From: a virus
IMG/VR virus record: IMGVR_UViG_3300024517_000007
Reading direction: 5' to 3' (one strand)
Length of the DNA: 28,097 nt
The notes under the pieces: generated by a model
The model's database searches: none
What the model saw: only the letters and a program-made list of their open reading frames with translations
Told to the model about the DNA's origin: nothing
Made by a program: the position numbers and the translations under genes
Shown here: positions 2,795 through 28,097 of the stretch, piece by piece
Layout of the letters: each line of letters opens with the position of its first letter
Position numbering within the stretch: the stretch's first letter is position 1

Positions 2795-4180
2795 GTGAAT
2801 CTTGGTCACTTGATAGACTTCGTTGGAAATCTCCTAGACTACGACCCTACGAACTCGACGTACCGATCCCAGCTTGTTTCTATTCTCAATGACGCCCAGA
2901 CACGAATTCTGACAGACCGCCCTTGGCCGTTCGCCATGAAGGAGCGGAAGCTCATAGTCTGGACTGATACCACCTTCAATTTCAACTTCACTGGTGGGTC
3001 CGACCTCATAACTGGAATCGGCATTCCGGTGAGCACAGACCCGGTTAAGCCTGGGTCTAACTTTACGACTTCTGTGCTTGAAGTCACGGATTCTGGTGGT
3101 AAAACCTCAATCCACATGATTACCTGGGTCAAATCCGCCACAGAGGCTTACCTTGACCGTCCATTTGAGGGAATAACTGGGGCGTATACCGCGACTTTGA
3201 AGCGGCGTGAAGTTCGCCTGCCGTCTGATTGCACGACCGTACAGAATGTTGGCGACCCATCAGTTGGAATTCCGGCCAAATCCTTGTTCCTCAGCAAGTG
3301 GGAACGAGAAGATGCCAACCTTGACCCTGAACTGTTGGGGACAATAGAAGCTTATCTGCCGTCATCTGGTGTTGTGGTACCAGCCCCAAACTCTGCACGC
3401 GGAATATCCGTTGTAGCCGGGGCTGGGCAGGGCATTAGGACCATTAATGTTTACATGGTGAACGTGATTGGTCCAAATGCAACCAACTTCGAGGTGTACC
3501 CCAAGGACGTTAGCGACGGGTTTGAATCAGCCTTCTCCAAGGTAGCCACCTTCTCACTTGGTAGCACTGAGACCCTGTCCTTCAAGCCGGAACCCCTTGA
3601 TCCTCAGACTGGTCTGTGGCGCAGGTACTACTTCACCTGCCCCGAAGCCGGGATAGAAGCCCCAACTCGTATCAGACACACAGAGCCCCTGGAGCCCACC
3701 GGGGTACCTACCGGGGTTGACACCGTCCCTCCTGATAACCCCCTCTTCACTGGTATCACGCTGCTGCCCCGTCTCGAACTTAGCTACCTGTCTTCGCAGA
3801 AATTCCAGGCGTCGAGCATACGGTATCGGTGGAACCAATCGGCTGCCTATCAGGCCATCCAGCTTTATCCGCACCCATCTGCGGACCAGGAACTTGATGT
3901 CCGTATGGTCATCAACCCTCCCAAGCTCCAGGAAGACCAGGACGCCCCCCTGATTCCACACGCATACGCACAGTTGATAGCGTTCGCTGCCCTGGAGAAT
4001 TTGACTTTGAAGGTGGATAACCCAGCCCTAAGTGCGGTCTACCAGCGCAAGAAGGACGTCTTGTACAGGGCCATGGAACAGACCTATTTGAAGGCCGTTC
4101 CGCGCAGGATAGTGAAGGGAACACCTACTGCTGGTTACAAATTCATACGCAATCCCTTCGGCCCTCTCACCTTCTCGTGA
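2795..4180 (+). CDS. Head-tail adaptor / tail tubular protein A-like (T7 gp11-like N-terminus with a long C-terminal extension)
   Basis: GTG 2795 lies 6 nt after AAGGAG (2783-2788). The N-terminus ...SQLVSILNDAQTRILTDRPWPFAMKE resembles the T7 gp11 segment ...[23 protein letters not shown] (from memory). The gene sits directly upstream of the nozzle-like gene. Confidence 0.5.
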   Translation: MNLGHLIDFVGNLLDYDPTNSTYRSQLVSILNDAQTRILTDRPWPFAMKERKLIVWTDTTFNFNFTGGSDLITGIGIPVSTDPVKPGSNFTTSVLEVTDSGGKTSIHMITWVKSATEAYLDRPFEGITGAYTATLKRREVRLPSDCTTVQNVGDPSVGIPAKSLFLSKWEREDANLDPELLGTIEAYLPSSGVVVPAPNSARGISVVAGAGQGIRTINVYMVNVIGPNATNFEVYPKDVSDGFESAFSKVATFSLGSTETLSFKPEPLDPQTGLWRRYYFTCPEAGIEAPTRIRHTEPLEPTGVPTGVDTVPPDNPLFTGITLLPRLELSYLSSQKFQASSIRYRWNQSAAYQAIQLYPHPSADQELDVRMVINPPKLQEDQDAPLIPHAYAQLIAFAALENLTLKVDNPALSAVYQRKKDVLYRAMEQTYLKAVPRRIVKGTPTAGYKFIRNPFGPLTFS

Positions 4181-9337: not shown

Positions 9338-11406
9338 TGGCTACACCCACTGGACGCAGGATGAACTACATAGAGCGTTACGCTCATGCGGCGGCGGCTG
9401 CATACCGTGTAGACCAGATCCGCACCACAATAGAAGCTGAACAGGATAGGGTCCAGTATTTGGACTCTCTCATTGGACAGGAACGCCAGACTCTTGCTGG
9501 GCTGCAGGATATCTTCCGCGCAGAAGACGTGGACTATTCCACCGCTGCCAAGCTTATCTCTCAGATGGAAGGAACCAAGGTTCTTATAGAAGAGACAAGG
9601 GCAGGGGCCACCGCCCGTGCTTCTGAGGCAGCCAAACTCCCTGCTGGCCTTCGTAACCCCAATTTGACTGGTGGCAACTACGCACTAGCCGCTGTGCAGG
9701 AGATCGCCGGTTCTGCTGGTATGACTCCCCAGAGGAAGAGAGCCATCCTCGAAGAGGCAACGAAGCGTGGTGTCTCTCCCGGTGACGTATCCCAACTTCG
9801 TTCCAGGCTTGATACTGTCAAGACTGTAACCGTCGGTGGCCTCACCGCCATGGAGCAAGAGGCAATCACTGAGGCCGAGAGAGCAGCACAGGAGGCCCAG
9901 GAGGCGGCATTCTTCGCTGGTCCCTCCGGTATCCGTGGTGGATTCGAGGGGATGGCCGAGGCCGACAACAGGAAGATGACTTCTTCAATGTTGAAGGAGG
10001 CCGGTCTTACAGAGCGTGCCAAGCTCCTTGAGGACTCGCAGTACGCGACTGAGGATGAGGCTCTCGACGCTGCCTTGGAGACGGTGCGCCTTACTGGTGA
10101 CCTACCTCCTGCCGGGATCGAGAGAGACATTTACGAGCGTGCACGCCAGTTGAAGGCGTATCGCAATGACCAGCGTGCGGACTTTGAGCAGGAGGTCCTT
10201 GACTCGCGTAAGCGGCTCGCCACCCTGGATAGAGAACGCTCCAAGATTGCCGATGCATATGATGACCCTCAGCAGGAATTCCTCCGTCGAGAGTTGACCG
10301 CACGTGGCTACACCTTCTACGATCGGGATTCCCCGGACGCGTGGAAGAATCAATACGTCCAATACCAGCAGTCTCCCGATTATGGGGTTTACCTCGGGGC
10401 GGCAGAACGATACAAGAAGGCCATTGAAGAAGACCGAGCCATAGAGCCTTCTACCCGCGCTGAGAACATAGTCACCTCTTACACGATGATGTTGGACAGA
10501 CGTGGCGAGTCTATGTCTGTCGACAAGATTCGTGGTCAGTTGGCTAAGGCCGGGATCAAGGGCAAGGAACAGGAGGATGCCATATCCTTCGTGATGGCCT
10601 ATTGGGAGGCTGGTGGTCCCGAGCAGGATCCGTCAATGCGTGAGATGGCGCGCAAGGATGAAGAGGCCCGCAAGAGGGAAGAGAACCTCCGCAGGCAGCG
10701 TGCAGAGGCCATGAAGCGGGAAGCTGACATCGCTCGCGACGTCACCACTCAGATGGAACGAGAGCAGGTAGCAGCCGTAGAGGACCTCCGTCGCGAACAG
10801 GCTACGATGGCCTTCCCCGCCAAGGAGTACGCCCGCCTCCGGGCCATGGGCAAGACGCCTGAGGAAGCCCGCGAGGCGGCAATGCGAGTCGCCGAGAAGG
10901 TTGAAACTGCCCCATCAGCAGCCAAGATAGTCATGAGCCCCGAATCTGTTCTTGAACGCCAGAGGCGCATAGACATCGAGCGCCCCAAGCGTGAAGCTGC
11001 TGAAATCCGGCAAATTCAATTCAAGACTGATGAGCCCGAAGGGGTTGACACTGTTGCTCCCGCTGCAACCCCTTCGGGCTCTGTTGCCAACGGCGTGATC
11101 GTTGACCCCAATGACCCCAAGCTGTCATATAGGAAGACACCAAGTGGTGACTCTTACATGGTGATGCGGGATGGGATCCCCTTCACGGCAGTCCGCAGGG
11201 ATGACCCCAGCCCACGTATGAGAAGGGCCTTCGAGTCCATCGAGAGCGTCGCTGGAGGTGGAGCCCCACTGCCTCCCTACCAGCCGCCCAAGACGCAACC
11301 CGAGGCACCGGAAGGGCCTTCCTTGCCCCCTCCCGCTCCCAAACCACCAACCCGCAAGAAGTGGAACCCGGTTACGGGCCGCATGGAAGAGGTGACCGGT
11401 GGCTGA
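9337..11406 (+). CDS. Internal core / ejection protein candidate (689 aa, highly charged helical, Pro-rich C-terminus)
   Basis: TGATG coupling to the upstream gene. Long E/R/A/K-rich stretches end in ...PLPPYQPPKTQPEAPEGPSLPPPAPKPP. Its position is equivalent to T7 gp15. Confidence 0.45.
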   Translation: MATPTGRRMNYIERYAHAAAAAYRVDQIRTTIEAEQDRVQYLDSLIGQERQTLAGLQDIFRAEDVDYSTAAKLISQMEGTKVLIEETRAGATARASEAAKLPAGLRNPNLTGGNYALAAVQEIAGSAGMTPQRKRAILEEATKRGVSPGDVSQLRSRLDTVKTVTVGGLTAMEQEAITEAERAAQEAQEAAFFAGPSGIRGGFEGMAEADNRKMTSSMLKEAGLTERAKLLEDSQYATEDEALDAALETVRLTGDLPPAGIERDIYERARQLKAYRNDQRADFEQEVLDSRKRLATLDRERSKIADAYDDPQQEFLRRELTARGYTFYDRDSPDAWKNQYVQYQQSPDYGVYLGAAERYKKAIEEDRAIEPSTRAENIVTSYTMMLDRRGESMSVDKIRGQLAKAGIKGKEQEDAISFVMAYWEAGGPEQDPSMREMARKDEEARKREENLRRQRAEAMKREADIARDVTTQMEREQVAAVEDLRREQATMAFPAKEYARLRAMGKTPEEAREAAMRVAEKVETAPSAAKIVMSPESVLERQRRIDIERPKREAAEIRQIQFKTDEPEGVDTVAPAATPSGSVANGVIVDPNDPKLSYRKTPSGDSYMVMRDGIPFTAVRRDDPSPRMRRAFESIESVAGGGAPLPPYQPPKTQPEAPEGPSLPPPAPKPPTRKKWNPVTGRMEEVTGG

Positions 11407-14400
11407 ATTCGAGATCGATGGCGTCATCTATGAATTCCCTGATGACTTCTCAGACGAGAAGGTGATTGGGATTCTGCGCGAGCAGAATATTATCCCGCCT
11501 CCTGCTGCTGCCCCTCAAGAGACAGCAACCCCCCTAATCAAGGAGGCACCTCCCCGCGCCGTGGTGGATATTCTTCCTGGTAGTGCCACCCAGGCGCTTG
11601 CTGAGGAAGCTATCACCAAGGCTGCCGGGGAAGAGGTGGCCGCCGCCACTCCCACCGGGATCATCGGGTCTGTGCTCGAAGAAGAGGAGAGGGTCAAGGC
11701 ACGGCTCGCGAAGGAGCAGGAGCGCCAGAGGTCCAAGATGGTCCAGCCCGGTGTGACAGAGCCTCGTACCCCTGGCTTCTTCGGTCCATTCCGCCCCACC
11801 GAAGTCCGCGAGAGGTTGACCTATAAGGTCCCTGCTGCGCTGGACCTCGATGCTGAATACGCCCCGTATGAGCAGTTCCCTGAGGGTTTTGACGTAGCTG
11901 ACCTCGAAACCCGTGTGGAGCGCATGACACAGGACCCTGAGACTGGTAAGTACAGAACCCCCACCGGATGGGAGGAATTCGTAGAGGCGTTTGCCCTGCA
12001 GCCGGTTCTCACGGAGGCTTCTGCGCGTGAACAGGAGCAGGCCCTATACCGGGAGCAGCTTGCTCGTGAGAAGGGATATTATGGAGAGACGCCCTTCTAT
12101 GACTATCCGGGCTCAATAGTACAGCAGGCATTTGAACAGCCCGATATTGAGGGCCGGGGAGTCATCGAGACAGAGCTTGCTGGCGGCCTGCGCTCCTTGC
12201 TCTCTTGGGGTTCAGCAGCCGCAGCGGAGGGTTACTTCCGCACCCTTGGATACGAAGTCGACGAGAGAGGGTTCCCGAAGGATCCGGATGACTGGGGTTA
12301 CGCCTTGGCTCAATGGCGCGAGTCAATGGGCATCCCAGGAGTCGTGGGTGTTGCCTTCGACGTGCCCGAAGTCGTACGCGAATCAGCATTCGGAGAGGAA
12401 GTCGGACTCCCTGACAGGTTTGGTTTCGCGGTCCCGACATTCGGTGTCCCATCAACCAGAACCCAGAAGAAGACGTCAACCTTCGACCCTGAACAGCGCC
12501 GTGTGGTAGACGCCAACACGGAAGACTGGAAGAAGCGAATCTTCCAGGGGGTAGCCAAGGGCCGCACTTGGGGCGACGAATTCCTTGATATGCCAGATAT
12601 GGCTCAGTGGTACCTCGCCAACACGGGCAACCCTGACCACGCCTATCTATCAGGTCTACTTGTGGAGCTTGTAATGCCCGCAGGCCCTGAGTTGGCGGCT
12701 AGTGCCGTGGGATACGGAGGGGGACTCGCTGCGGACCTTGCCAGATTGGGACCCAAACTCAGGCAGTACAAGGCTCTCACCAAGGCAGAGAAGCTTCTTC
12801 ACGAAGCACACGTGGCTAACAAGGTTGCCGGCGCCAAACTCCTGACTGTTGAGAAGGCCGCCGCCAAAGCTGGGGCTAAACCCGGTGCTTCCCTTATGCG
12901 AGCCACTGAGGAAGCCAGGGTTGCACAGGACGCACTCGATGCTGCTCGTGCCACAGCGTCTGAACTCCGCGCAGCCGTCATGGGCAACTACGACCCCGCT
13001 CTTGGGGCTTCCCTTGCGCGTAAGGCAGCCAGGAAGGTGGGGGCCACTGATGACCAGCAGCGCGCCTTGAAGACTATCCTCCGGTCCGAGAAGCCCACCA
13101 CTGTTGAGAGCCTTGCTGGTGCTCTCCGTAAGGCTGGGCTGCCAGAGGATCGTGTCGATGCAACCATGAGGCTTGTGGCTCAGAACCTCCCTGAAGATCT
13201 CGTTGCTTTGACCGACGAGATCGCAGTCCCCCGTTCAATCCTCCCTGAGGCCAAGAAGAAGCTCGCCGCTAATCGGGCCAAGATATTCAGGTACGACGAC
13301 TATGATAAGGCCAAAAACCTCCGTGAGGTGGCCTTGACCATGCCTGAGTCACAGGCACGTACCAAGGCTATAGAGCTTGCGCAGAAGGCCATGGAGGCTG
13401 GCACTGTAGACAAATCCACTTCTCGTGCGCTTGACTCTCTGGCTAGGCAACTCACCAAGGAGGCAAAAGCAGCAGGGAGGGATATAGATGTGGTACGGGC
13501 CATAAACGAGCGTCCTCCGTCTGGGGTATTCAAGGCCATAGGTGGCTCCCTTGGTGAGGAGATGCTGAACAGGTTCGGTGACCTCGTGACCTGGGACGAC
13601 ATTCCTGCTGACGTTCGTAGGCAGATTGTCTCCATTTATGATATAGCAACAGTGGATGACTACGGGAAGCTCGCCAGACTTAATCGTGACTTGACGCGTG
13701 CCAAGACCTTCTTCTCTTCGGCTGAACGCGGCGTAAAGTCCATGGTTAGGAACAGTGACTTCTTCAAGTCACGGGCAAACACCCTGACCAACCGCGCCCT
13801 CCGTGGTGTGGAATCACTGGCAGGTGAACCCGCCTCTCTGTCCACCCGTGGTCTTATAGCGCGTGACCTGTATGACTTCCTCCTGGACCCGAGAGGGTTG
13901 CAGAGGCTCCGCGCCAAGGCGTGGATGGACCCCGAGCTTTACAGAGAGACTGTAACCACCGCCAGAATGGCTAAGGAATTGGAGCAGGCCGCCGCCACCG
14001 TCATCAGGACCTACGGTGATAGGCTTCTCCCCCTAGCCAGGGAACTTGGCTCGTATGACAAGGCTATCGAGAGGCTGCTCGAAACAACCCTGAGTGGGGT
14101 TGGGGATAGCCCGACCACCGCTTGGGATTCAATCCTGGACTCTTTGTACGGCGGTCCCGCTAAGGACCAAATCAAGGCTGCAATAGCCCAAGAGGCTGAC
14201 ACCCGCTGGAGTGAACTCGGGGTTAATGTCCGTCCCGCTGAGGGCGATAAGCCGATCTCCGTTGAGTTCAATAACTATCCTAGTATTGATCAGGTCAAAG
14301 CTCTTGACTCGTTCTTCGTAGGAGAGGGCGTTCTTCCGGGAGTTACGGGTGGTCTGCTTGGGAAGCTCACAGAGGGCGACGTTGAAATGGCCTTCGTCAA

Positions 14401-16390
14401 GGCCACAATAGAGTCCGGGTTGAAGAAGGAGATACTCAAAAACAAGGCTCTGACTCGAATGGTGTCCGAGTCCACTCCTGACGTGGACCTCGCCCTCAGG
14501 CTCAGGTCCACAGACCAAGGGGGTGTCAGTACGTTCGGTGTTGGTTCCTCAATATCCACCGCCCAGGCAGAGAAGATAGCCAGAGACTCGTTTGCCAACC
14601 CTGTGGCCGGGACCTTCTTGGAACTCCCCGAGTACCTCAGGGGGGCAGTGGGTCCCAGGTACGTTTCTCTCCCTGAGGATACGGCGGTTGCCGCTGCGCT
14701 TAACAAGGGTGGGGAAGAACTGTTCCGGATGCTGGACTCGGTTCCTGTCAAGCAACGTGGTTACCTGTCATCGAATACCTTCTCGGATATAATTGGTCGC
14801 GTGCGCCGTGATGTGTTCCAGCGCATAAACACTGGATACATAGCTCCCAACATCATCCCTCTTGCAGAGCGGGTCGCATCGACATATCTGATACCTATGT
14901 CCACCATTGGTGTGGGTCCCACCTTGCGTGCCATAGGGAGACAGATGACCCCAGAGGTCGTCACTGAGGCCATAAACAAGGTTATGAAGCGGAGGGTGTA
15001 CTCCGGGGGTCTTGAAGCCCCGGATGGGACCTACTACTCCCCAAGGATGATAGACAACCTCGCCAATGAGTACGGACTGGGTATGACCCGTCTGGAGTCA
15101 TCCAGGGTGGGTTCTCTCGCACAAGACCTCCGAAGGCAGGCCAAGGCGCAGGCCAAGGCGCAAGGGCTGGACAAGGGTGCGAAGAAGGCCGCATACGACT
15201 TCTTGTACGAGGAGGCCAATCCCTTCGGTCGCTCCTACTGGAACACTCTCGCTGACAACATCGAGCGCAACTTCCGGCGCAACGTGTTTGAGTCTGGGCT
15301 CGCGGCAGGAATGGCACCCGCAGACGCCGCTGAACTTGCTCGGAGGTCAAACTTCGATTATGCCTCAGTTCCTGGTCTGCTTGCCGAACAGGCTGCCCAG
15401 GCATACGGCAATGCTGGTTTCGCGTATCAGGCCGCCGCAGAACTGAGTGGCAAGGTGTTGGACAACCCCGCGTTGGTGAGTTCCTACCTCAAGGCCCATC
15501 GGGAGCGTGCCAAGTACCAGGATCCCTACAACCTGCGTGGTGATAAGGCCATCAAGACTATTGGGATGATGAACATCGAAGGTGATGATTATTACCTCCC
15601 TGAGTCCCCTGCCTTCAAGCCTATCGATTGGACCATAGCCCTCGCCCGTGGTGCGGATAAATGGGTTGGGGATGTAGCATATGCTGCCAGCCTGACCGAA
15701 GATAACGTTAGCGGTGTTCTCGACGGAGGAGAGGCACTCATATATGGTGGACTTGGAGCAGCAGCAGAAGTTGGTTCTGAGATCCTTGTTCCAGGTGTTT
15801 TCGACGCCTATAAGCGGTTCCAAGAAGGAGAGGGTTACGCCACACAGGGCATCCCTGATTCCAGACCCATAACCGACGAGAAGGCGTACTGGGCCGCTGC
15901 GCTTATAGCCAATGCTCAGGACCCGTACCATGAGCAGGGTGGGGCGTGGAACACATTCACCAATTCCTTCCCGCATACTCAGGTCAAGCCACCACCCAAG
16001 TACGCAGACCCCACTGATCCCACCGGGATGACCTGGATAGCCCAGCCCCCAGAAGGTATTCCGCACATTATGTGGGAACCCGGTCCCGGCAAGGCACCGA
16101 GATATTATGCTATGCGCCCGACCAACGAGGCCCTGTCTCGTATAGCCATCCTTCGTGGTCTTGACCCACTTGGGATAGACAGGGCGCTTCCTCTCTATTC
16201 GACCTTCTGGGAGCCCCAGCCTGGGGGTTCTGTCTTGTACACCGAGGGCCGTCTTCCTGAGTCCACCGCTGAGGCACTCGGGGAACTTACTGTTCCACGT
16301 GTGAAGGGCGGTGCAGGTAGAAGAGAAGAAGTCTTGCAGAGAGAGTTGATCAGGGGCGTCAGAGAAGACGTCGAGGTCAAGGCAGAGTAA
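11399..16390 (+). CDS. Giant virion protein (1663 aa), internal core / DNA-ejection protein candidate
   Basis: GTG 11399 lies 6 nt after GAGG and overlaps the upstream stop by 8 nt. It is a single uninterrupted ORF covering about 18% of the genome, at a position equivalent to T7 gp16. I recognised no catalytic motif by eye. Confidence 0.5.
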   Translation: MAEFEIDGVIYEFPDDFSDEKVIGILREQNIIPPPAAAPQETATPLIKEAPPRAVVDILPGSATQALAEEAITKAAGEEVAAATPTGIIGSVLEEEERVKARLAKEQERQRSKMVQPGVTEPRTPGFFGPFRPTEVRERLTYKVPAALDLDAEYAPYEQFPEGFDVADLETRVERMTQDPETGKYRTPTGWEEFVEAFALQPVLTEASAREQEQALYREQLAREKGYYGETPFYDYPGSIVQQAFEQPDIEGRGVIETELAGGLRSLLSWGSAAAAEGYFRTLGYEVDERGFPKDPDDWGYALAQWRESMGIPGVVGVAFDVPEVVRESAFGEEVGLPDRFGFAVPTFGVPSTRTQKKTSTFDPEQRRVVDANTEDWKKRIFQGVAKGRTWGDEFLDMPDMAQWYLANTGNPDHAYLSGLLVELVMPAGPELAASAVGYGGGLAADLARLGPKLRQYKALTKAEKLLHEAHVANKVAGAKLLTVEKAAAKAGAKPGASLMRATEEARVAQDALDAARATASELRAAVMGNYDPALGASLARKAARKVGATDDQQRALKTILRSEKPTTVESLAGALRKAGLPEDRVDATMRLVAQNLPEDLVALTDEIAVPRSILPEAKKKLAANRAKIFRYDDYDKAKNLREVALTMPESQARTKAIELAQKAMEAGTVDKSTSRALDSLARQLTKEAKAAGRDIDVVRAINERPPSGVFKAIGGSLGEEMLNRFGDLVTWDDIPADVRRQIVSIYDIATVDDYGKLARLNRDLTRAKTFFSSAERGVKSMVRNSDFFKSRANTLTNRALRGVESLAGEPASLSTRGLIARDLYDFLLDPRGLQRLRAKAWMDPELYRETVTTARMAKELEQAAATVIRTYGDRLLPLARELGSYDKAIERLLETTLSGVGDSPTTAWDSILDSLYGGPAKDQIKAAIAQEADTRWSELGVNVRPAEGDKPISVEFNNYPSIDQVKALDSFFVGEGVLPGVTGGLLGKLTEGDVEMAFVKATIESGLKKEILKNKALTRMVSESTPDVDLALRLRSTDQGGVSTFGVGSSISTAQAEKIARDSFANPVAGTFLELPEYLRGAVGPRYVSLPEDTAVAAALNKGGEELFRMLDSVPVKQRGYLSSNTFSDIIGRVRRDVFQRINTGYIAPNIIPLAERVASTYLIPMSTIGVGPTLRAIGRQMTPEVVTEAINKVMKRRVYSGGLEAPDGTYYSPRMIDNLANEYGLGMTRLESSRVGSLAQDLRRQAKAQAKAQGLDKGAKKAAYDFLYEEANPFGRSYWNTLADNIERNFRRNVFESGLAAGMAPADAAELARRSNFDYASVPGLLAEQAAQAYGNAGFAYQAAAELSGKVLDNPALVSSYLKAHRERAKYQDPYNLRGDKAIKTIGMMNIEGDDYYLPESPAFKPIDWTIALARGADKWVGDVAYAASLTEDNVSGVLDGGEALIYGGLGAAAEVGSEILVPGVFDAYKRFQEGEGYATQGIPDSRPITDEKAYWAAALIANAQDPYHEQGGAWNTFTNSFPHTQVKPPPKYADPTDPTGMTWIAQPPEGIPHIMWEPGPGKAPRYYAMRPTNEALSRIAILRGLDPLGIDRALPLYSTFWEPQPGGSVLYTEGRLPESTAEALGELTVPRVKGGAGRREEVLQRELIRGVREDVEVKAE

Positions 16391-18471: not shown

Positions 18472-18671
18472 TAGACCCAGACCACCGTGAGCGCATGGAG
18501 CGCAAATCATCCCGCCCTTCTAGCCAGCCGATAAAAATCCCAGTTGGGGATATACTCAGGCTCGTGGGCAAAATAATAAGGTATTCCAAGGGTGGGTTCA
18601 CGCCCGAGGAGCGTCGTGACCTCGTGGGTGACCTTCTGGAGCTTGCTGCCCGTATAGCTGAGAGTGGCTGA
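18468..18671 (+). CDS. Hypothetical protein (67 aa)
   Basis: GTG 18468 overlaps the upstream stop (GTGA). Its own stop overlaps the endolysin ATG (TGATG). Confidence 0.4.
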
Positions 18672-19147
18672 TGACATACACCATCCAGAGGCGCTTCGAC
18701 GGCAGACTGTCCATATTCTTCAAGCTCAGTGAATTAACCCGCACGAGCACCGGGCTCCCCAATGAGCCCACATCAGCGGCCAAAACCAATCTGCTGATTC
18801 TGACCCAACACTTCCTGGACCCTATCCGTGGAGCGGTGGGAGGCTGGGTGCGTGTGACCTCAGGTTATAGGAGCCCCGCAGTCAATAAGGCAGTGGGTGG
18901 GTCCAAGACTTCTGCGCACATGACCGGTGAGGCTGCGGATATCAAGGCCAAGGACCACACAGCTTCTGAGCTTGTGGCACTCATATTTGGCCTGGACCTC
19001 CCATTCGACCAGTTGATTGCCTACGCGCCCGAGCGTGGTGGTCACGTCCACATTGGTATCAAGGCTGGAGCTTCTGGCAGGGCACGCAGGCAGGTTCTGT
19101 GGGCACCCAAGTCTGGTGGCTACGAGCCGTTCACCGTCGGGCACTGA
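18671..19147 (+). CDS. Endolysin, zinc peptidase M15 family (VanY / L-alanyl-D-glutamate peptidase type)
   Basis: The motifs SGYRSPAVNKAVGGSKTSAHMTGEAADI (H-x6-D) and GGHVHIG (H-x-H) match the M15 metal-binding signature. It is the terminal gene of the rightward arm. Confidence 0.8.
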   Translation: MTYTIQRRFDGRLSIFFKLSELTRTSTGLPNEPTSAAKTNLLILTQHFLDPIRGAVGGWVRVTSGYRSPAVNKAVGGSKTSAHMTGEAADIKAKDHTASELVALIFGLDLPFDQLIAYAPERGGHVHIGIKAGASGRARRQVLWAPKSGGYEPFTVGH

Positions 19148-19297: not shown

Positions 19298-19561
19298 TTA
19301 TTTGAGCGAAGTGATTACCACAACCTCGCCTTCTGGGATTGCATCCGAGGCGTACACACATACCCCGGCTGTGGAATCCGGGACAGTGGGCTTATACTCC
19401 ACCAAGAACAACTGCTTGGCAGTGCTCTTGTTGTTCTCCACAATGTCCCGCAGGATTATGATGGTCCGCGCCATATAGTGAACGAGATCGGCCATCTTCG
19501 GGTCTTGGGGATCTGAGTCCAAGACTTCTTGGGCCTCCTCACGGGTGAACAGGTCAGTCAT
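19298..19561 (-). CDS. Hypothetical protein (87 aa)
   Basis: ATG is preceded by GGGAG at 7 nt and overlaps the upstream small ORF stop (ATGACTGA). It is the last gene of the leftward arm. Confidence 0.5.
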   Translation of the reverse strand: MTDLFTREEAQEVLDSDPQDPKMADLVHYMARTIIILRDIVENNKSTAKQLFLVEYKPTVPDSTAGVCVYASDAIPEGEVVVITSLK

Positions 19562-19670
19562 TATCGGCTCCCATCCTGGCGAGTTCCCTAAGCATCGTGG
19601 TCATCACGAGTGGCACCCCCACGAGAATGACCACGGCTGTTATCACGAGTTGGACGGTCGGGGGAAGCAT
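19554..19670 (-). CDS. Small membrane protein (38 aa from ATG 19670; alternative in-frame starts at 19712 and 19769)
   Basis: On the minus strand, AGGAGttcacATG precedes MLPPTVQLVITAVVILVGVPLVMTTML..., which contains one hydrophobic span. The SD+ATG is duplicated by the 42-bp tandem repeat. ATG 19769 (71 aa) has no SD. Confidence 0.4.
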   Translation of the reverse strand: MLPPTVQLVITAVVILVGVPLVMTTMLRELARMGADND

Positions 19671-19729
19671 GTGAACTCCTGTTGTAGCGAGTTGAACGGT
19701 CGGGGGAAGCATGTGAACTCCTGTTGTCG
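19646..19729. repeat. Two tandem copies of a 42-bp unit (2 mismatches), plus a partial third copy upstream in + coordinates
   Basis: Read directly. Copy 1 (19646-19687) is cgagttgGacggtcgggggaagcatgtgaactcctgttgtAg. Copy 2 (19688-19729) is cgagttgAacggtcgggggaagcatgtgaactcctgttgtCg. Confidence 0.9.
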
Positions 19730-19836
19730 CGAAGCAGGTCCATGGGGTCACTGGGAAGGGGCTGGTCATCGGGGAGGGAGAGGGCCTTGGCGAGAAGCAG
19801 AAGGCCAGAGAGGTTTGTCTTCATTGGTGTGGTCCC

Positions 19837-20875: not shown

Positions 20876-22882
20876 TTAGACTCCCTGCTCATCGAGCAAT
20901 TCTTCGAGTGTTTTGATGCTTATGCCGTCGTTGTCCCCAGACTGAACGGTGGGGGCCTTGGTTCCTTTGCGGTGTCCTACGGAGGCAGGATTCACACGCC
21001 CACTTGTCACGGCTTCGTCCATAGCCTTGGTGGTGTTCACCCCTTCCAGGTGCAGCCTGCCTGGACGACACTTATCGAACACGCCTCCCGCTGTGGTGTC
21101 ATGTTCCGTTATGGGCTGCTGAACAATGTCAGACACCTCCTCATAGAAGCCACTCATGTTGTATCCCACAGTCGCCTTGAAGTCTGTAACCCCGTCCTTC
21201 TTACGCTGGGTCTCTTTGGCCTCTTTGGACATTTTGGATGAGGATCCACGCCCAGTTATGGACCTGCGGAGTGAGTTCACGTACTTCACGGACTTCCGGT
21301 CGCCGTACAGTATATCTCCACGGAGTTGTGCGTTATCCATGGCGTACACGTCGGTGAAGACCTTGTCTACGGATGACGGGATGCTCTCAGGTGAATGGAA
21401 CATGGCCCCGAGGTCTGAATAATCAGTGGGGGAGAACGCGGGATTTTTGGATACGCAGGTGGGGGTGTGCCTGCCCCCGTGATCCGAGTGGTGGGCGAAT
21501 ATATATATTATGCCTTCTTGGCCCCTTATGGCTATCCACCTATTGTTCATTACACCTCGGGTCTCCTCTTCTTTAAAGAGACCCGAGGTGTAATGCGAGT
21601 TGACACACTTCCTCGACCAATTCTTCAGGGAATTCGCCACAGTTTTATCAGACAGCACAGAATGTGAGGCACGGAAGGAAGCCACTGAGTATCCAGCGTC
21701 CATCCACTTGGATACCTGAACCTCTATGGCAGAAGCCATGGAACCAAGAACGAAGGGCCTACAGTCATCACATGAAGCCATCCAGCAGGTCAGGTGGGTG
21801 TGATTGGAATGACCAGCACCACCGTGGGACCAAGTAGTTACCAGATGGGGTGCCCTGTTACACCTGACATTGAACGCTCTCCCACGGGCAGCATGTACGG
21901 CATCAGCCAACTGCTGCTCCACATCCTTATCACTGTCGGGGTCAATATCGAGCCCCAGCCCACCAAGGAGGTGGGCAAACTTATCGATCTTGAAGTTTGC
22001 CCTGACTTCCTTCTCTGCGTGTCCTTCTATACGCCTCTTGTATTTATCCCAATGTTCATCCTCGTCATTGGACACGTCACCCTTAGGCTTCCGAGCCACG
22101 GCATTGGAATCAATGTCTTCCAGCACCTCAACGAGTTCCTTGCTGATAAACAGGCTCTTCCACGTGGCAACACTTATGTGCGTGATGCCTTCTATCGCGT
22201 TGGGGAGCGACTCATTGTCTATATCGAATCCGAACTCCTTGTACCTCCAATGCTCACTGGTGCTGAACTTGAACCCAGCGTCTATGCGTATGCTATCGGA
22301 TTTGAATACAAGTTCACCGGGGCGCTTATCGCTGGACCCGACAGGCTTGCGGAATACAACGTAGTTTTTAGCGCTCTTGCTGTTATAGGCTATGACCGAT
22401 GGGCTCATCTTCTGAGAGCGCATCCAGTCGTTGACTTCTTGCAAATCAGAACGAGTTTTAGCGTCGAACTCTATCGCCAAAAACTTCTCGTGGGACACTA
22501 TGTTTGAGTCTTCGACCCTGACTACATAGCTCCAATAAGTCTTGCCGCTCTTATTGACCTTCTCCTTAGCCCCAGGGTGATGGTGGGAATCGCCATAACA
22601 TCCGAAGTGGAACAGGTCCCCACTGACCTTATAGAACACCCCCTTGCCCTTGGGGGCATAACCGTTGTTGCTGAATGGACAACCGGCCTTTAGGTTGTTC
22701 CAACCATCGGGGTTCTTGACACAATAGGTGTCAGGATCAGCAACTATGTCTTCAACGGAGGTGGGGTTCAGTTCGCCCATAGCGCGCCCACCGAGGCGTC
22801 CTATGAGGCTGTATCTACTGAGCCCGAATCTGTTTATCTCTGAATCATTGACGTCAACAACAGGGCGTGATACACTGTCCAT
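20876..22882 (-). CDS. Large Cys/His-rich early protein (668 aa), putative replication initiator (possible HUH-type nickase and/or primase-like zinc-finger remnant)
   Basis: It is the first gene of the leftward arm, with SD GGAG 6 nt before the ATG. CPFSNNGYAPKGKGVFYKVSGDLFHFGCYGDSHHH resembles a degenerate DnaG CHC2 finger (CPFHNEKTPSFTV...FYHCFGCGAHG). The histidine cluster SHGGAGHSNHTHLTCW is of the H-x-H / three-His type seen in Rep and relaxase proteins. There is also a GFDIDNE (DxD) motif. I saw no Walker A motif and no polymerase motifs. The functional call is inference. Confidence 0.35.
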   Translation of the reverse strand: MDSVSRPVVDVNDSEINRFGLSRYSLIGRLGGRAMGELNPTSVEDIVADPDTYCVKNPDGWNNLKAGCPFSNNGYAPKGKGVFYKVSGDLFHFGCYGDSHHHPGAKEKVNKSGKTYWSYVVRVEDSNIVSHEKFLAIEFDAKTRSDLQEVNDWMRSQKMSPSVIAYNSKSAKNYVVFRKPVGSSDKRPGELVFKSDSIRIDAGFKFSTSEHWRYKEFGFDIDNESLPNAIEGITHISVATWKSLFISKELVEVLEDIDSNAVARKPKGDVSNDEDEHWDKYKRRIEGHAEKEVRANFKIDKFAHLLGGLGLDIDPDSDKDVEQQLADAVHAARGRAFNVRCNRAPHLVTTWSHGGAGHSNHTHLTCWMASCDDCRPFVLGSMASAIEVQVSKWMDAGYSVASFRASHSVLSDKTVANSLKNWSRKCVNSHYTSGLFKEEETRGVMNNRWIAIRGQEGIIYIFAHHSDHGGRHTPTCVSKNPAFSPTDYSDLGAMFHSPESIPSSVDKVFTDVYAMDNAQLRGDILYGDRKSVKYVNSLRRSITGRGSSSKMSKEAKETQRKKDGVTDFKATVGYNMSGFYEEVSDIVQQPITEHDTTAGGVFDKCRPGRLHLEGVNTTKAMDEAVTSGRVNPASVGHRKGTKAPTVQSGDNDGISIKTLEELLDEQGV
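21551..21607. repeat. Hairpin element copy A (TACACCTCGGGTCTC-N12-GAGACCCGAGGTGTA, then atgcgagTTGACACA), inside the 668-aa CDS
   Basis: Read directly. The arms at 21551-21565 and 21578-21592 are perfectly complementary and identical to those of copy B at 27628-27671. The 3' flank GAGTTGACACA is shared. The 42-nt hairpin equals 14 codons and is translated as ...YTSGLFKEEETRGV... Confidence 0.9.
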
Positions 22883-22981: not shown

Positions 22982-22998
22982 CTGTGTGAGCTGACACA
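22981..22998. promoter_or_regulatory. Operator-like palindrome ACTGTGTGAGCTGACACA (core TGTGT-gAGCTg-ACACA)
   Basis: It is nearly identical to 27671-27688 (ACTGTGTGAGTTGACACA) and lies directly upstream of the -35 of the leftward promoter. Further TGACAC/ACACAG half-site-like sequences occur at 23011-23026. Confidence 0.5.
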
Positions 22999-23105: not shown

Positions 23106-23594
23106 ATGCTTTGCCCCCATTGTGATGGGCCTACTAAGGTCGTTCTAACGGTCCCGGCCAATAAGCGCACAGATAAGCGCCATTATAGGAACCGGAAGTG
23201 CAAAGCTTGTGGCAAGGGGCTTGTGACCCTGGAACTTCCAGCCATTGAACTGCGTGAACTCGACCAGAGGGCAGGCAACCGGACACTCACCGATGGTGTG
23301 GGTGCACCACTGCCGACACGTGATAACAATATAGACCTGCTGGACATCGAATCTGAATTGGAGACCCTTCTCCGTCCGTCACTGGATGCCATCAATGAAG
23401 TGCTGACCTCCGACAAGGCTGTCTCCCGGTACAAGGCGGAGACCGCACGTTGGTTGGTCGCAGATAGAAGGGAATACAGGAGGACGCTGGCAGAACAGCA
23501 TGGAGCCCAAGAGTCTGATGATCCCTCAATCAGGGAACTTGCCCGCGTGTTGGCATTGGTCCCGGACCCCATGACCGGGACAGATGGAGAATGA
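23106..23594 (+). CDS. NrdR-type zinc-ribbon protein with a helical C-terminal domain (162 aa); candidate small terminase or DNA-binding regulator
   Basis: MLCPHCDGPTKVVLTV...YRNRKCKACGKGLVTLE follows the NrdR N-terminal ribbon pattern MxCPxC..TKV...RRRxCxxCxxxxTTxE. It is the first gene of the rightward arm, two genes upstream of the large terminase. Confidence 0.5.
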   Translation: MLCPHCDGPTKVVLTVPANKRTDKRHYRNRKCKACGKGLVTLELPAIELRELDQRAGNRTLTDGVGAPLPTRDNNIDLLDIESELETLLRPSLDAINEVLTSDKAVSRYKAETARWLVADRREYRRTLAEQHGAQESDDPSIRELARVLALVPDPMTGTDGE

Positions 23595-23824
23595 TATGCC
23601 CTGCATGCCTTGAAGATACGGCGCTGGTCCTGGAAACGAGGCAACCCTCACATTCCACGTCAAGGGCGGCCACCTGTAGACCCAAGATAAGGGACCTCTC
23701 CATAAACTTCCCGGATATGGTGTACAGGAGGAGAAGGTGTAGGGCCTGTGGGCATGTGACCCAAACTATAGAGGTTCCGCTGGAGGACTTCGATATAGCG
23801 CTCAACATGGTGCCTGCCCAGTGA
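23591..23824 (+). CDS. NrdR-type zinc-ribbon protein (77 aa), paralogous in ribbon motif to the preceding gene
   Basis: MICPACLEDTALVLETR...VYRRRRCRACGHVTQTIEV. It has an ATGA overlap upstream and a GTGA overlap with the terminase start downstream. Confidence 0.5.
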   Translation: MICPACLEDTALVLETRQPSHSTSRAATCRPKIRDLSINFPDMVYRRRRCRACGHVTQTIEVPLEDFDIALNMVPAQ

Positions 23825-25389
23825 CGTACGTCCCGCCATCAGTGCCGCCGCAACTGACGCATAAGGTGTCCAGGCTTGTGGGTGACCTGGACCTATTCGC
23901 GAGAATACATAAAGTTCAGGACAAGGACAGTAAGCGCCCGATCCCGTGGGACACGGCACCTATGCAGGAGAAGATATTTAAGGCTGTAGAAGCTGGACAC
24001 AAGAGAATCGCATGCATAAAGGCACGGCAGGTGTACTGCACAACCGGGTGCAAGATGGTCCTGCACCACATGGCGTACACGACCCCACATGCCGCCATGC
24101 ACGCCGTGGTGTCCATGCGTGCGGATTCAGCATCTATGCTCTTGGACGACAACCGCAGATGGCTTGAAGACCCACCAGCCCTATTGCAGCGTCCAATCAA
24201 GACCAAGGCCCGCAACAACATAGTATACGAAGATACCGGGGCTTCGATAAGGTCATTCACCTCGCGTTCTGCCACCGGGCTGCGCTCATTCACGCCAGTG
24301 GCGGCAGTCATAAGTGAGGCTGCGTTTGCACCCGATCTTGAAGAGGTCATAGCACAGGCAGATGCCGCAGTCGGTGACGGGCTGTTGATAATCGAATCCA
24401 CGGCAGACAACCCGGCTGACTTCTTCTCACAACTCATCAGGGGTGCGCCTGAGAACGGTTGGCATCTTATAACCATGTGGTGGTGGGAACACCCGGCGTA
24501 CTGTGATTCACCCGATGTGATTCCGGCAGACTTTGAGGCTTCTCTCACGGATTACGAGAAGGGTATCCGAGACGAGTACGTCCTGTCACTCGGGCAACTT
24601 CACTGGAGACGTAGGACAGAGAAGCGCATCGGGTCTTCATACAAATTCCGCCGCGAATACCCAGCCTGCTTGGATGATTGCTTCCTTGACCGAGAGGGAG
24701 GCTACTTCGAGGATGAACTCCTTGGAGACATACACGTCGTGGAGCACAACCTCCACGGCAACCAGCACGGTCGGGAGATAGAGCCTCCACACCCACACGA
24801 TAGATACGTCATGGGCGTGGACATCGGTGGTGGCGTTGGTGGAGACTATTCCGCCTTGTGCGTAGTGTCCGTGTCGACACGGCAGGTGGTCTACACGGAA
24901 CGCAATAACCGAATCACTCCTGCCGCATGGGCGCACAGGGTGATTCAGGTGGCATCCAGGTACAACCAAGCCCTCGTGCTTGGCGAGTCCAACAACCACG
25001 GCCATGCGTTCTTGTTGGAAGCCACGACCTGCGGATACCGCAACTTGTGGGCTAATCCCAAGACCGGGAAGCCCTGGGTGACAACGCTTCAATCCAAGCT
25101 TGACGCCTTCGACACTCTGCGCGAGTCCCTCCAGATCATCCAGATCCTGGATCGCCCCACGTGGCTGGAGCTTCGGTCGCTTACCATCCCACAAGGTAAG
25201 GTAGCACCAGAGGCCCCTAAGGGAGGTCATGATGACGCGGCAATGGCCTGTGCACTGGCCTATAGGTGTCTTCGAGACATACCCCCGTCTTGGAGAACAC
25301 AAGCAGCAGTCTCCCAGAGAACCCGTATCGATGACCTGATATCCGCCTCCCGCGCAAGAAGAATCAGGTCTTCCGCCCTCCCGTTCTAA
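23821..25389 (+). CDS. terL: Terminase large subunit
   Basis: Walker A-like IKARQVYCTTG (the K-x-RQ-x-G-x-T type common in TerL). Walker B-like AAVISEAAF. RNase H-like nuclease motifs VMGVDIGGGVGGDYSALCVV, LGESNNHGHAF and GGHDDAAMACALAY. It lies directly upstream of the portal gene. The GTG start overlaps the upstream stop. Confidence 0.85.
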   Translation: MTYVPPSVPPQLTHKVSRLVGDLDLFARIHKVQDKDSKRPIPWDTAPMQEKIFKAVEAGHKRIACIKARQVYCTTGCKMVLHHMAYTTPHAAMHAVVSMRADSASMLLDDNRRWLEDPPALLQRPIKTKARNNIVYEDTGASIRSFTSRSATGLRSFTPVAAVISEAAFAPDLEEVIAQADAAVGDGLLIIESTADNPADFFSQLIRGAPENGWHLITMWWWEHPAYCDSPDVIPADFEASLTDYEKGIRDEYVLSLGQLHWRRRTEKRIGSSYKFRREYPACLDDCFLDREGGYFEDELLGDIHVVEHNLHGNQHGREIEPPHPHDRYVMGVDIGGGVGGDYSALCVVSVSTRQVVYTERNNRITPAAWAHRVIQVASRYNQALVLGESNNHGHAFLLEATTCGYRNLWANPKTGKPWVTTLQSKLDAFDTLRESLQIIQILDRPTWLELRSLTIPQGKVAPEAPKGGHDDAAMACALAYRCLRDIPPSWRTQAAVSQRTRIDDLISASRARRIRSSALPF

Positions 25390-25406: not shown

Positions 25407-27113
25407 ATGCTTGAACCCAATCACATCAGGGACATAGTTAACACGCATGACGTCTACTGGGATAGTCGCCGAGATCGGATGCGCGAATACCGTAGGCTTT
25501 ATCTGACTGAATTCTGGGAATCCGAGACCTATCCTTCTCTGGACGGGATTCTTAGAACAGAGGTCCCCAAGGCATACGCCGTGGTGGAGTCCTATCTCGG
25601 TTCCCTGTTCGCCAAGAACCCTTCTGTCAGGGTCGAGCCCGATATCCGGGATAGGGGCAACCCGGAAGTAGCACAGGCCACCGCGAATCGCTATCTGCTC
25701 ACCATCCGGGAGCAGCTGGAGGACGCAACCCGGTTGGCACTCATATATCCGTGCAGCTTCTTGAAGCTCGCCCCAGAAGAGAACGTGGATCCCTTGAAGC
25801 GTGTCTCATGCGCTGCACTCCCGCCTTGGGAGGTCATCGTGGACTCCACGGCGGCTTCCTGGGACCAGCAGCGATACGTGGGGCACACATACCTGATGCC
25901 ACTGCCTGAGGCAAGGGAGAGGTACGGGAAGCCCGAGGACGCCTACCGGACGCGCAATTACACGAAGTGGATAGAAGCAGCTGGGGTAACAGGGACCACG
26001 AGCCGATCCTCCACCATAATGATGGGAGACACCACTTCTGACACTGACAGGTGGATCAGGATCGTGGAGGTCTACGACATAGTGGATGACAACCTCCTAG
26101 TGTGGAGTCCAGACTACGCCGATGGGGAGGAGTTCCTGTTCGAGGGAGTCAAGGTGCAGGTCGGGGCGCTTGACCCTGACGCTGATGCCGAGTCTGAGAC
26201 CCCTGAGGGAGAGATCCAGCATGAGACAACTGGGATCCCCTACAAGTCCGCAAGTGGCCGCCCGGTCATACCTGTCATACCGATATACTTCTCTCGTGAC
26301 CCTGATACCCCTCTCCGTGGATACAGCCTCATTCATAGGTCTGCAGACCAGTTCAGGGAAATGAACGTCATGCGGACCTATCAGGCACAGGGCGTGCGGC
26401 GCATGGCCCGCCAGTGGCTCATGAGGGCTGGGTTCCTGTCTGAGGACGCAGCCGCCAAGCTCACCCAGGGCATCGATGGTGAGATAATCGAGGTGGACCT
26501 CCCTCCTGGGACTCCCCTTGAAGGGAACATCATGCCTGCCCCACAGGCACCCATCCCAGGCGACATAGCCGCGTACGCCCTCACGATCCAGGGGGACATA
26601 GCCGATGCGGGCCTTCTGGCTCCATTCACACGGGGCGAGGTCACCAAGTCCACCGCAACTGAGCAGAACCTCCTTGCTGCATACACCAGTAGCGAAGTGT
26701 CGAGGATGGCGCGGACCCGTGATGCAGCCATAACTGCTGTGGCCCACACCTACAACGTGATGTTGTCTGTGGTGCTGGGTGATGATGCGGAGCCTCTGGC
26801 TCTCCCCAACCCCGTTGGACCCACCATCCTGTCCGCAGACGACTTGACTGGTGACTTCGGTTATTGGGCCGTGGACCAGGGCACCACCCCCATGAGCGAC
26901 TTCGCCAAACAGCAGTCTCTCGAACGCCTCGCCCCCATACTGGTGCAACTTGGGGCCGACCCCAGGATCATCCTCGAAGAGATAGTGCGAGTCTTCCAGC
27001 TTCCCGAGAACCTCGCTGTCCCCGCCCCTCCGCCTGAACCCATGCCTGAACCTGGGGCTGAATCCACAGTCCCAGAACAGCAGATGCCCGTCCTCCCATT
27101 CCCCGGAGTGTAA
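25407..27113 (+). CDS. Portal protein (568 aa)
   Basis: Size and its position immediately after TerL and ahead of the scaffold and capsid genes. The C-terminus is acidic and Pro-rich. No family-specific motif was verified. Confidence 0.7.
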   Translation: MLEPNHIRDIVNTHDVYWDSRRDRMREYRRLYLTEFWESETYPSLDGILRTEVPKAYAVVESYLGSLFAKNPSVRVEPDIRDRGNPEVAQATANRYLLTIREQLEDATRLALIYPCSFLKLAPEENVDPLKRVSCAALPPWEVIVDSTAASWDQQRYVGHTYLMPLPEARERYGKPEDAYRTRNYTKWIEAAGVTGTTSRSSTIMMGDTTSDTDRWIRIVEVYDIVDDNLLVWSPDYADGEEFLFEGVKVQVGALDPDADAESETPEGEIQHETTGIPYKSASGRPVIPVIPIYFSRDPDTPLRGYSLIHRSADQFREMNVMRTYQAQGVRRMARQWLMRAGFLSEDAAAKLTQGIDGEIIEVDLPPGTPLEGNIMPAPQAPIPGDIAAYALTIQGDIADAGLLAPFTRGEVTKSTATEQNLLAAYTSSEVSRMARTRDAAITAVAHTYNVMLSVVLGDDAEPLALPNPVGPTILSADDLTGDFGYWAVDQGTTPMSDFAKQQSLERLAPILVQLGADPRIILEEIVRVFQLPENLAVPAPPPEPMPEPGAESTVPEQQMPVLPFPGV

Positions 27114-27627: not shown

Positions 27628-27688
27628 TACACCTCGGGTCTCTTACATAAGAAGAAGAGACCCGAGGTGTACTGTGTGAGTTGACACA
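27628..27688. repeat. Hairpin element copy B (TACACCTCGGGTCTC-N14-GAGACCCGAGGTGTA, then the palindrome CTGTGTGAGTTGACACA)
   Basis: Read directly. The arms lie at 27628-27642 and 27657-27671, and the stem extends to 17 bp via TT/AA. It starts 6 nt after the stop of the acidic-protein gene and may act as a terminator, although no U-tract follows. TTGACA (27681-27686), N16, then CATACT (27703-27708) could be a promoter. Confidence 0.9.
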
Positions 27689-28097
27689 ATGGCATACACC
27701 AGCATACTTGGCAGGTTGAAGAAGGCATTCGGGTTTGGGGTCGCCAGACCTTCAGTTATCCCCAAGACGCGGGCATCCAAATACGTGTCCCGCTTCGGTG
27801 GGGACCCTATGAAGGAATTGAAGGCCGCCATCGAGAACAAACAGCCTGTCTCCTTCTTCTACAATGACAAGTGGCAGGAGGAAGGAACAACCGGGAAGTA
27901 CGGCCAGCGCGTCGGTAACCCGCATGCCATTTGGCGTGACAAAAACGGAACCACCTACTTGCACTTGTACGTGGATCCTCAATCAGCTTCCGCCACGGGG
28001 TCTCTCCCTGGGTGGAGAACATTCATTATTGGACGCATCCAGAATGTCTCCGTGCTTGATCTTGGCACGAGACTGTTTGGACGCCCTGTCCAATTCG
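27689..28097 (+). CDS. Standalone WYL-like domain protein, partial in the window (continues as 128-195 after circularisation; 158 aa from ATG 27689, 118 aa from ATG 27809)
   Basis: The frame is open from ATG 27689 to the window end and is absent from the ORF track only because there is no stop before the edge. PVSFFYNDK...GQRVGNPHAIWRDKNGTTYLHLYVDP...GWRTFIIGRIQNVSVLD follows the WYL-domain pattern (R-x-x-x-P, W/T-Y-L, R-x-F-x-x-x-R-I). ATG 27809 has the better SD (GGTGGGGA). Confidence 0.5.
   Translation, partial: MAYTSILGRLKKAFGFGVARPSVIPKTRASKYVSRFGGDPMKELKAAIENKQPVSFFYNDKWQEEGTTGKYGQRVGNPHAIWRDKNGTTYLHLYVDPQSASATGSLPGWRTFIIGRIQNVSVLDLGTRLFGRPVQF

Follow-up and report, generated by a model that had tools for sequence, protein, structure and literature searches.

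Several replication initiators have their origin inside or beside their own gene, namely lambda O with ori-lambda, N15 RepA, P2 A and phiX174 A, and there are familiar cases of initiators that bind an operator in their own promoter as well as the origin. P4 uses two separated cis sites, ori and crr, and RepB' of RSF1010 recognises specific single-stranded DNA (ssDNA) hairpins, ssiA and ssiB, as priming signals. Here we compare with these systems a locus of the virus record IMGVR_UViG_3300024517_000007 (28,097 nucleotides (nt); this whole stretch is called the window), where an orphan gene of 668 amino acids (aa) contains a conserved hairpin. With moderate confidence, and from sequence comparisons, we read its product as a replication initiator that has two modules, binds zinc and represents a new family, and the cis-linked hairpin as its probable origin or signal for priming. 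Systems of this kind have been described before, but both the protein family and the element are new.

The gene is the first and largest of the leftward non-structural block. Its coordinates, strand and size (Table 1) agree with the preliminary description, which had been made from the letters of the window, and the strings quoted there were also located: CPFS (aa 68-71), FHFGCYGDSHHH (91-102), GFDIDNE (218-224), SHGGAGHSNHTHLTCW (352-367) and SVKYVNSL (531-538). The label Cys/His-rich given to the protein is borne out modestly, with 10 Cys (1.5%) and 26 His (3.9%). The same description had singled out this gene as the only candidate replication function, and it stands as the best, and so far the only one in the phage, because its N-terminal domain is found fused to superfamily 3 (SF3) helicases and its C-terminal module to a primase-polymerase (Prim-Pol), and because no other replication gene was detected. 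A scan of the 20 main open reading frames (ORFs) with Pfam and PHROGs revealed no polymerase or helicase family, and the canonical Walker A motif, [AG]x4GK[ST], is absent from the 24 main ORFs.

As judged by homology searches, the protein belongs to an almost unknown, previously undescribed and very small family with two modules. An exhaustive hidden Markov model (HMM) search of 1.84 billion representative proteins returned just 13 relatives, and a word-index homologue search with two family alignments gave no new members; the full-length relatives number five. Neither the protein nor the family profiles matched anything in Pfam, PHROGs, NCBIfam or the PDB sequences, and a tblastn search of 50,697 phage records with the protein found nothing.

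The N-terminal half connects the protein to helicases. Seven of the 13 HMM hits (P0007, P0009-P0013 and P0015; 617-675 aa) align to residues ~12-134 of the query only, and the remainder of these proteins is a P4-family/D5 SF3 helicase module (DUF5906, Pox_D5 and TIGR01613, up to 1e-35), with the shared domain at the N-terminus. Residues K65, G67, C68, P69, C95, H100 and H102 are invariant in all ten N-domain sequences, and the candidate zinc site that they outline is almost invariant across the 13-sequence alignment. The degenerate CHC2 finger suggested earlier for this region is real as a conserved motif (C68/C95/H100/H102), but it has no match to the zf-CHC2 profile. The domain resembles the zinc domains of the DnaG and T7 gp4 primases (zf-CHC2, Prim_Zn_Ribbon) in the pattern and predicted topology of a CPF knuckle followed by a beta-hairpin and a second Cys/His knuckle, and in its N-terminal placement in replication proteins. 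In contrast to those domains, the query ligands are C-C-H-H, instead of C-H-C-C or Cys4, no Toprim domain follows, and there was no Pfam match at E <= 1 (PF01807 had none in 12 N-domain sequences at this threshold) nor any significant Foldseek match to solved primase zinc domains. The zf-CHC2, Toprim and Prim-Pol profiles of Pfam gave no match in the N-half of any family member, and with no Toprim catalytic domain the protein does not classify as a DnaG-type primase.

Between the N-domain and the C-module lies a poorly conserved middle region, which hhalign found to be similar neither to the middle region of the P0007-type proteins nor to Prim-Pol. It holds GFDIDNE, which the preliminary description had put forward as a DxD motif. 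The two aspartates, D220 and D222, are not maintained: the motif reads DIN in the 84% relative and is missing from the 35% relatives. With D220/D222 not conserved and no match to PF09250, the query does not classify as an AEP or Prim-Pol protein.

The C-module leads to a Prim-Pol. In P0014 (818 aa), residues 447-812 match residues 299-664 of the query only, and ahead of them residues 39-223 are a Prim-Pol domain (PF09250, 5e-13). Gene order at the P0014 locus, L103, shows synteny with the window: small genes come after the rep-like gene, the M15 endolysin, 53% identical to that of the window, is on the opposite strand, and homologues of the 158-aa, 146-aa and 1663-aa proteins occur in the same order. 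P0014 starts with MSNIPHLAPSVNP, and P0004 and P0005 start with MSNIPHPAPSVNS, so that the first 13 residues are alike; an hhalign comparison of the N-half with the N-terminus of P0014 matched these 13 residues and nothing else. Because P0014 shares this start with P0004 and P0005, the comparison indicates that a Prim-Pol cassette replaced the N-domain and the middle region in situ, inside an otherwise orthologous gene, and the N-half is thus interchangeable with a primase-polymerase. Among the Prim-Pol proteins (AEP, PF09250; pRN1 ORF904, RSF1010 RepB'), the likeness is therefore one of position, since the sister phage has a Prim-Pol in the slot of the query's N-half, whereas the query itself has neither AEP motifs nor a Prim-Pol profile match. 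With the P4 alpha-type and P4-family/D5 SF3 proteins the query shares the domain found at the N-terminus of the seven proteins described above, but it has no P-loop, its C-module is unrelated, and it shows no similarity to the helicase module (hhalign probability of 0.4% for the C-module against the SF3 module). Having no Walker A motif and no DUF5906 or TIGR01613 match, it does not fall within the P4-family/D5 SF3 group.

Within the C-module, C341, C366, W367, C371 and C374 are conserved, P0014 included. R284, H330, R335, E387, W449, Y460, R529, I542-T543-G544, T592, T597 and G600 are also conserved up to the most distant member. Since both C68/C95/H100/H102 and C341/C366/C371/C374 are conserved, the protein probably carries two structural metal sites.

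The strongest result is conservation of the DNA itself, at the hairpin. The preliminary description had placed it within the gene, about 70 codons past a His cluster, and we confirmed it at ~67 codons (copy A in Table 1), in the stretch encoding aa ~430-445, which is a surface loop of low confidence in the predicted structure. Copy A folds as ssDNA with -20.7 kcal/mol (z = -8.4), and 0 of 200 shuffled sequences fold as well. The hairpin is kept with compensatory changes in L001, L002, L007, L008, L079 and L104. In the 84% and 79% relatives, ACC/GGT is changed to GGA/TCC in one, and C/G to G/C, plus one G:T pair, in the other; in the relatives with ~33% identity (L007, L008, L104 and the fragment L079) the core is at the same position of the gene and the outer stems differ. 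The element lies within the gene in four lineages, and in a fifth, the Prim-Pol lineage, it is found 49 nt downstream of the rep stop codon.

Across 13 distinct units the 9-bp core, TCGGGTCTC/GAGACCCGA, is invariant except for transitions that give G:T on one strand, while each of the eight outer pairs occurs as 3-4 Watson-Crick pair types (up to four per position) and the loop length varies from 10 to 16 nt. In an alignment-free k-mer test, CTCGGGTCTC and GAGACCCGAG, the 10-nt arms, are the sole 10-mers common to the gene in four deep lineages (~33% protein identity); in codon-shuffled genes the mean number of shared 9-mers is 0.005. Some lineages translate the 5' arm as Ser-Gly-Leu (SGL) and others as Thr-Arg-Val-Ser (TRVS), and because it is read in two frames across lineages, we conclude that selection acts at the level of the nucleic acid rather than of the peptide.

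A near-palindromic 16-mer, TGTGTGAGCTGACACA, usually flanks the hairpin and forms a TGTGT-N6-ACACA dyad. The full 16-mer stands beside the in-gene hairpin in L007, L008 and L079, and in the window a degenerate half of it adjoins copy A. The number of units differs between close relatives, since the divergent intergenic region upstream of the gene has the 16-mer alone in the window, and a 16-mer, a hairpin and a second 16-mer in L001 (positions 1675-1750), the 84% relative. L007 has two tandem 86-nt repeats at 3555-3714, each made of a 16-mer and a hairpin (also L013, 11749-11864), and some of the L007/L013 copies change GGG/CCC to GGG/TTC, with the G:T wobble on the late-sense strand only. Between the 16-mer of unit B and the ATG at 27689 there is no obvious Shine-Dalgarno sequence. 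In the locus of P0014, the coding sequence of the Prim-Pol-type rep gene includes another, different inverted repeat (L103, 1807-1875), which is perfect over 19 nt and has a 31-nt spacer.

A search of metagenomes with the hairpin core yielded 89 loci, of which only three (L076, L079 and L093) encode the family; the others are unrelated GC-rich hairpins. Rfam gave nothing but a spurious miRNA hairpin match. The metagenome contig Ga0208543_1000022 (50.6 kb; L076 and L093) has a P0003-type rep gene with hairpin at two places, and probably represents a ~25-kb genome assembled as a dimer or concatemer.

The preliminary description had proposed that the protein is an HUH rolling-circle initiator or relaxase, in which the His cluster at aa 358-363, as metal site, and a downstream Tyr serve to nick the hairpin inside the gene, in the way of phiX174 A and P2 A. 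An origin-like hairpin is indeed present in the gene, and a sub-threshold list of structural matches points the same way. AlphaFold2 (AF2) gave a mean predicted local distance difference test (pLDDT) score of 30 with a 3-sequence alignment and 67 overall with a 15-sequence chimeric alignment; in the latter the N-domain reaches ~80-88 and residues 300-635 ~80-93, and values below 50 are found for most of aa 202-298 and for the hairpin-encoded aa 427-443. Foldseek searches of PDB and BFVD with this model gave no match at E <= 0.001. Below threshold, the PDB hits are generic ferredoxin-like/ACT folds and the papillomavirus E2 DNA-binding domain, and the BFVD list is topped by a microvirus replication initiator (E = 0.01; TM score <= 0.45 in the list) and is enriched in such initiators, together with other Reps, including a G2P-domain Rep, and parvovirus NS1. 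There is also a superficial likeness between the Cys motif with which microvirus VP4 begins and the first part of the C-module, where a Cys cluster precedes a long helix. The profile and structure comparisons that had been advised (Pfam, PDB sequences, AF2 and Foldseek) were thus carried out, and gave no profile match, and Rep-like hits below threshold only. From the model, we read the fold as a ferredoxin/RRM-like core, of the general kind found in Reps, origin-binding domains and AEPs, which the comparisons assign to none of these groups.

The residues on which an HUH nickase would depend are not conserved. In P0004, P0005 and P0014, S, F, T, K or R stand in place of H358, H361 and H363, and the C-module has no other conserved HxH. 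The Tyr of SVKYVNSL (Y534), one of the downstream tyrosines pointed out earlier, is H, K, R, E, F or T in the relatives, and the sole invariant Tyr of the C-module, Y460, is in a predicted beta-strand instead of a helix. The query matches none of the Rep, relaxase and Phage_GPA profiles at E <= 10, nor do these profiles match any family member, and hhalign of the C-module against nine Microviridae VP4 sequences gave a probability of 0.16%. In contrast to the VP4/gpA initiators, the query has no conserved counterparts of FLTLTY, HYH and YVARY. In addition, the known HUH origins have a conserved nick site located in the loop, whereas in this hairpin the loop is variable in sequence and length and the stem core is invariant. 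The HUH reading fails because the three His and Y534 are not conserved, no Rep profile matches and the hhalign probability is this low; we reject the identification as a nickase, and consider it highly improbable that the model holds in any form.

Taking the fusions and the hairpin together, we propose the following for the two-module initiator. Module 1 (aa 1-298) would act in template recognition or priming, because the same domain is carried by SF3 helicases and the module is swapped for a Prim-Pol. Module 2 (aa 299-664), which is alpha/beta, with the Cys4 cluster and without NTPase, HUH or AEP motifs, would bind the origin and/or recruit the host replisome, as may be expected of a phage with no recognisable helicase or polymerase. 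The hairpin would be the cis-acting site of the protein, that is, an origin or a priming signal extruded as a hairpin or cruciform, embedded where the gene encodes a predicted disordered surface loop. By analogy, priming from a hairpin of the RepB' type is the mechanism that we find most plausible. The additional copies of the hairpin may be auxiliary sites, in the manner of P4 crr, or operators; the ori and crr sites of P4 are analogous to the multiple hairpin units observed here.

The organisation of the locus is similar to that of lambda O, N15 RepA, P2 A and phiX174 A, in that the initiator gene heads an early block, a conserved cis-element is found in the coding sequence at a tolerant linker, and this element stays linked to the gene across lineages. 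On the other hand, there is no sequence or profile similarity between these initiators and the query, which has no HUH or Tyr motifs, and the element, instead of iterons and an AT-rich region, consists of a long perfect hairpin whose stem core is invariant.

Several observations weigh against an initiator of this type with its origin in the gene. Some of them concern the protein: no catalytic triad of a primase is conserved in the N-half, the middle regions of the two architectures have no detectable homology, and the predicted structure has no fold match at the threshold given above. The N-domain has only ~120 aa, and in the fusions it is apparently followed by the helicase's own N-terminal region; because of its size, of this helicase-type region behind it and of the missing triad, the N-domain may be DNA-binding and not catalytic. 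The others concern the units. The hairpin is not exclusive to the gene, as shown by copy B in the late region and by the L001 unit in a divergent promoter region; two tandem units are located just upstream of the capsid gene in L007 and L013; the 16-mer abuts the start codon at 27689; and in 3 of 3 independent cases it is the local sense strand that carries the G:T wobbles.

These same units suggest another explanation, in which the protein is related to replication and the hairpin/16-mer units are regulatory, either operators or elements of RNA processing, RNA stabilisation or translational control, and not origins. As operators they could be read by a phage regulator such as the NrdR-like Zn-ribbon protein that 23106-23594 encodes. 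In either case the units would be placed at operon junctions, with one of them in a tolerant loop of the rep gene. In agreement with this, copy B comes directly after the 168-aa gene, the unit of L103 lies between the rep stop codon and the ribosome-binding site of the next gene, and TGTGT-N6-ACACA resembles the site of a dimeric DNA-binding protein. The G:T(U) wobbles on the sense strand in three cases keep an RNA-level or regulatory role alive. However, one copy is always found in or immediately beside the rep gene in five lineages, including the one where the hairpin is outside the coding region, and a copy kept in this way is the classic pattern of linkage between initiator and origin. There is also no T-tract for intrinsic termination and no Rfam match, the order of 16-mer and hairpin relative to transcription varies between copies, which argues against a single RNA-level mechanism, and invariance of the stem core implies a protein that recognises its sequence, as opposed to a generic RNase III site. 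We therefore regard purely regulatory units as a possibility to be taken seriously, if an unlikely one. Of the in-gene origin suggested in the preliminary description, what holds is a hairpin that is conserved, covarying and linked to the gene in five lineages, but with further copies elsewhere an exclusive origin role is unsupported; origin function of the hairpin in this phage is, on the comparisons made here, probable.

A non-replication protein, acting in early takeover, anti-defence or regulation and sharing mobile domains with replication proteins, would agree with the lack of a catalytic motif and of a detected known replication fold, and in such a tiny family the association with replication comes from few architectures. 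Nevertheless, the two halves are linked separately to an SF3 helicase and to a Prim-Pol, the Prim-Pol version fills the same genomic slot in the syntenic phage, and the ~28-kb genome would otherwise have no replication gene, which makes this explanation improbable.

In a bolder version of the initiator reading, the N-half would belong to a new type of primase or priming module, distinct from both AEP and Toprim and exchangeable in situ with a Prim-Pol, which together with the C-module reads the invariant hairpin as a dedicated initiation signal, kept in the gene by way of the disordered loop. We hold this to be rather doubtful; if true, it would be a new initiator/origin system, by which a 28-kb phage replicates without a helicase or polymerase of its own.

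If the initiator with its cis-linked hairpin is confirmed, a function would be available for a phage gene family that current profile libraries leave unannotated, and it would explain how DNA synthesis starts in an uncultured aquatic podovirus-like lineage without a recognisable replication gene. The exchange between the N-module and the Prim-Pol offers a comparative handle on what may be a new domain for priming or template recognition, or a new way to recruit the host primase. The embedded hairpin is a case of dual coding, where a DNA structure, read in two frames across lineages, is selected more strongly than the encoded peptide, and its invariant core can serve as a sequence tag for finding further members of the lineage.

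The window begins and ends with the same 127 bases (1-127 and 27971-28097), and because of this we take this exact direct repeat as the overlap of a circular assembly, with a genome unit of ~27,970 bp. The window looks like a tailed phage on account of its matches to terminase, portal, major head, internal-virion/tail and M15 endolysin genes (Table 1), and no annotation could be obtained for the remaining genes. Its terminase shares at most 26% identity with those of cultured phages, among which Roseobacter phage CRP-7 comes nearest, and megablast of 6 kb against the 50,697 phage records gave no match. The same contig was also assembled from several aquatic metagenomes. No tRNAs were found, the GC-skew profile has no clear origin signal, and scans for sigma-70 promoters and intrinsic terminators were at background level only.

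Table 1 Coordinates of the gene, its modules, the hairpin and 16-mer units and other features of the window
Feature	Position	Strand	Remarks
Candidate replication-initiator gene, orphan, 668 aa	20876..22882	-	ATG start; relatives at 33-84% identity
N-domain, aa 12-134, beta-rich Cys/His	22481..22849	-	common to seven P4-family/D5 SF3 helicase proteins
Candidate zinc site K65-G67-C68-P69 ... C95 ... H100-x-H102-P103	22574..22690	-	
Middle region, aa 135-298, poorly conserved, holds GFDIDNE	21989..22480	-	five full-length relatives only
C-module, aa 299-664	20891..21988	-	common to P0014, the Prim-Pol fusion of a syntenic phage
Cys4 cluster C341 / C366-W367 / C371 / C374	21761..21862	-	overlaps the His cluster of the preliminary description; from alignments
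Hairpin copy A, within gene	21548..21595	.	18-nt perfect arms, 12-nt loop; core TCGGGTCTC / GAGACCCGA
Degenerate half of 16-mer dyad, GAGTTGACACA	21597..21607	+	adjoins copy A
Solitary 16-mer dyad TGTGTGAGCTGACACA	22983..22998	+	divergent intergenic region upstream of the 668-aa gene
Hairpin copy B, late region	27628..27671	.	6 nt past the stop of the 168-aa gene; z = -7.6
16-mer dyad TGTGTGAGTTGACACA	27673..27688	+	abuts ATG 27689 of the 158-aa gene
158-aa gene	ATG 27689, across the circular junction to 195		
279-aa gene	207-1046		after the 158-aa gene
Major head protein	1186-2220		phrog_9953
Internal-virion or tail protein	4265-6397		
M15 endolysin	18671-19147		
Large terminase	23821-25389		Pfam Terminase_6C, phrog_2
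Portal	25407-27113		phrog_156

Two small Zn-ribbon proteins are encoded just upstream of the terminase (23106-23594 and 23591-23824). The product of the former has an NrdR-like ribbon (Pfam E = 1e-3) and is kept in relatives at 30-86% identity; its role may be that of a small terminase, or of a regulator with the 16-mer dyad as its site. The 1663-aa ORF (11399-16390) has no family match whatsoever, and its counterpart in L103 has 1262 aa and is just 25% identical over 338 aa. Finally, a 42-nt unit occurs in two tandem copies, 76% identical, at 19624-19707, in a small leftward ORF (19554-19769 / 19588-19824).

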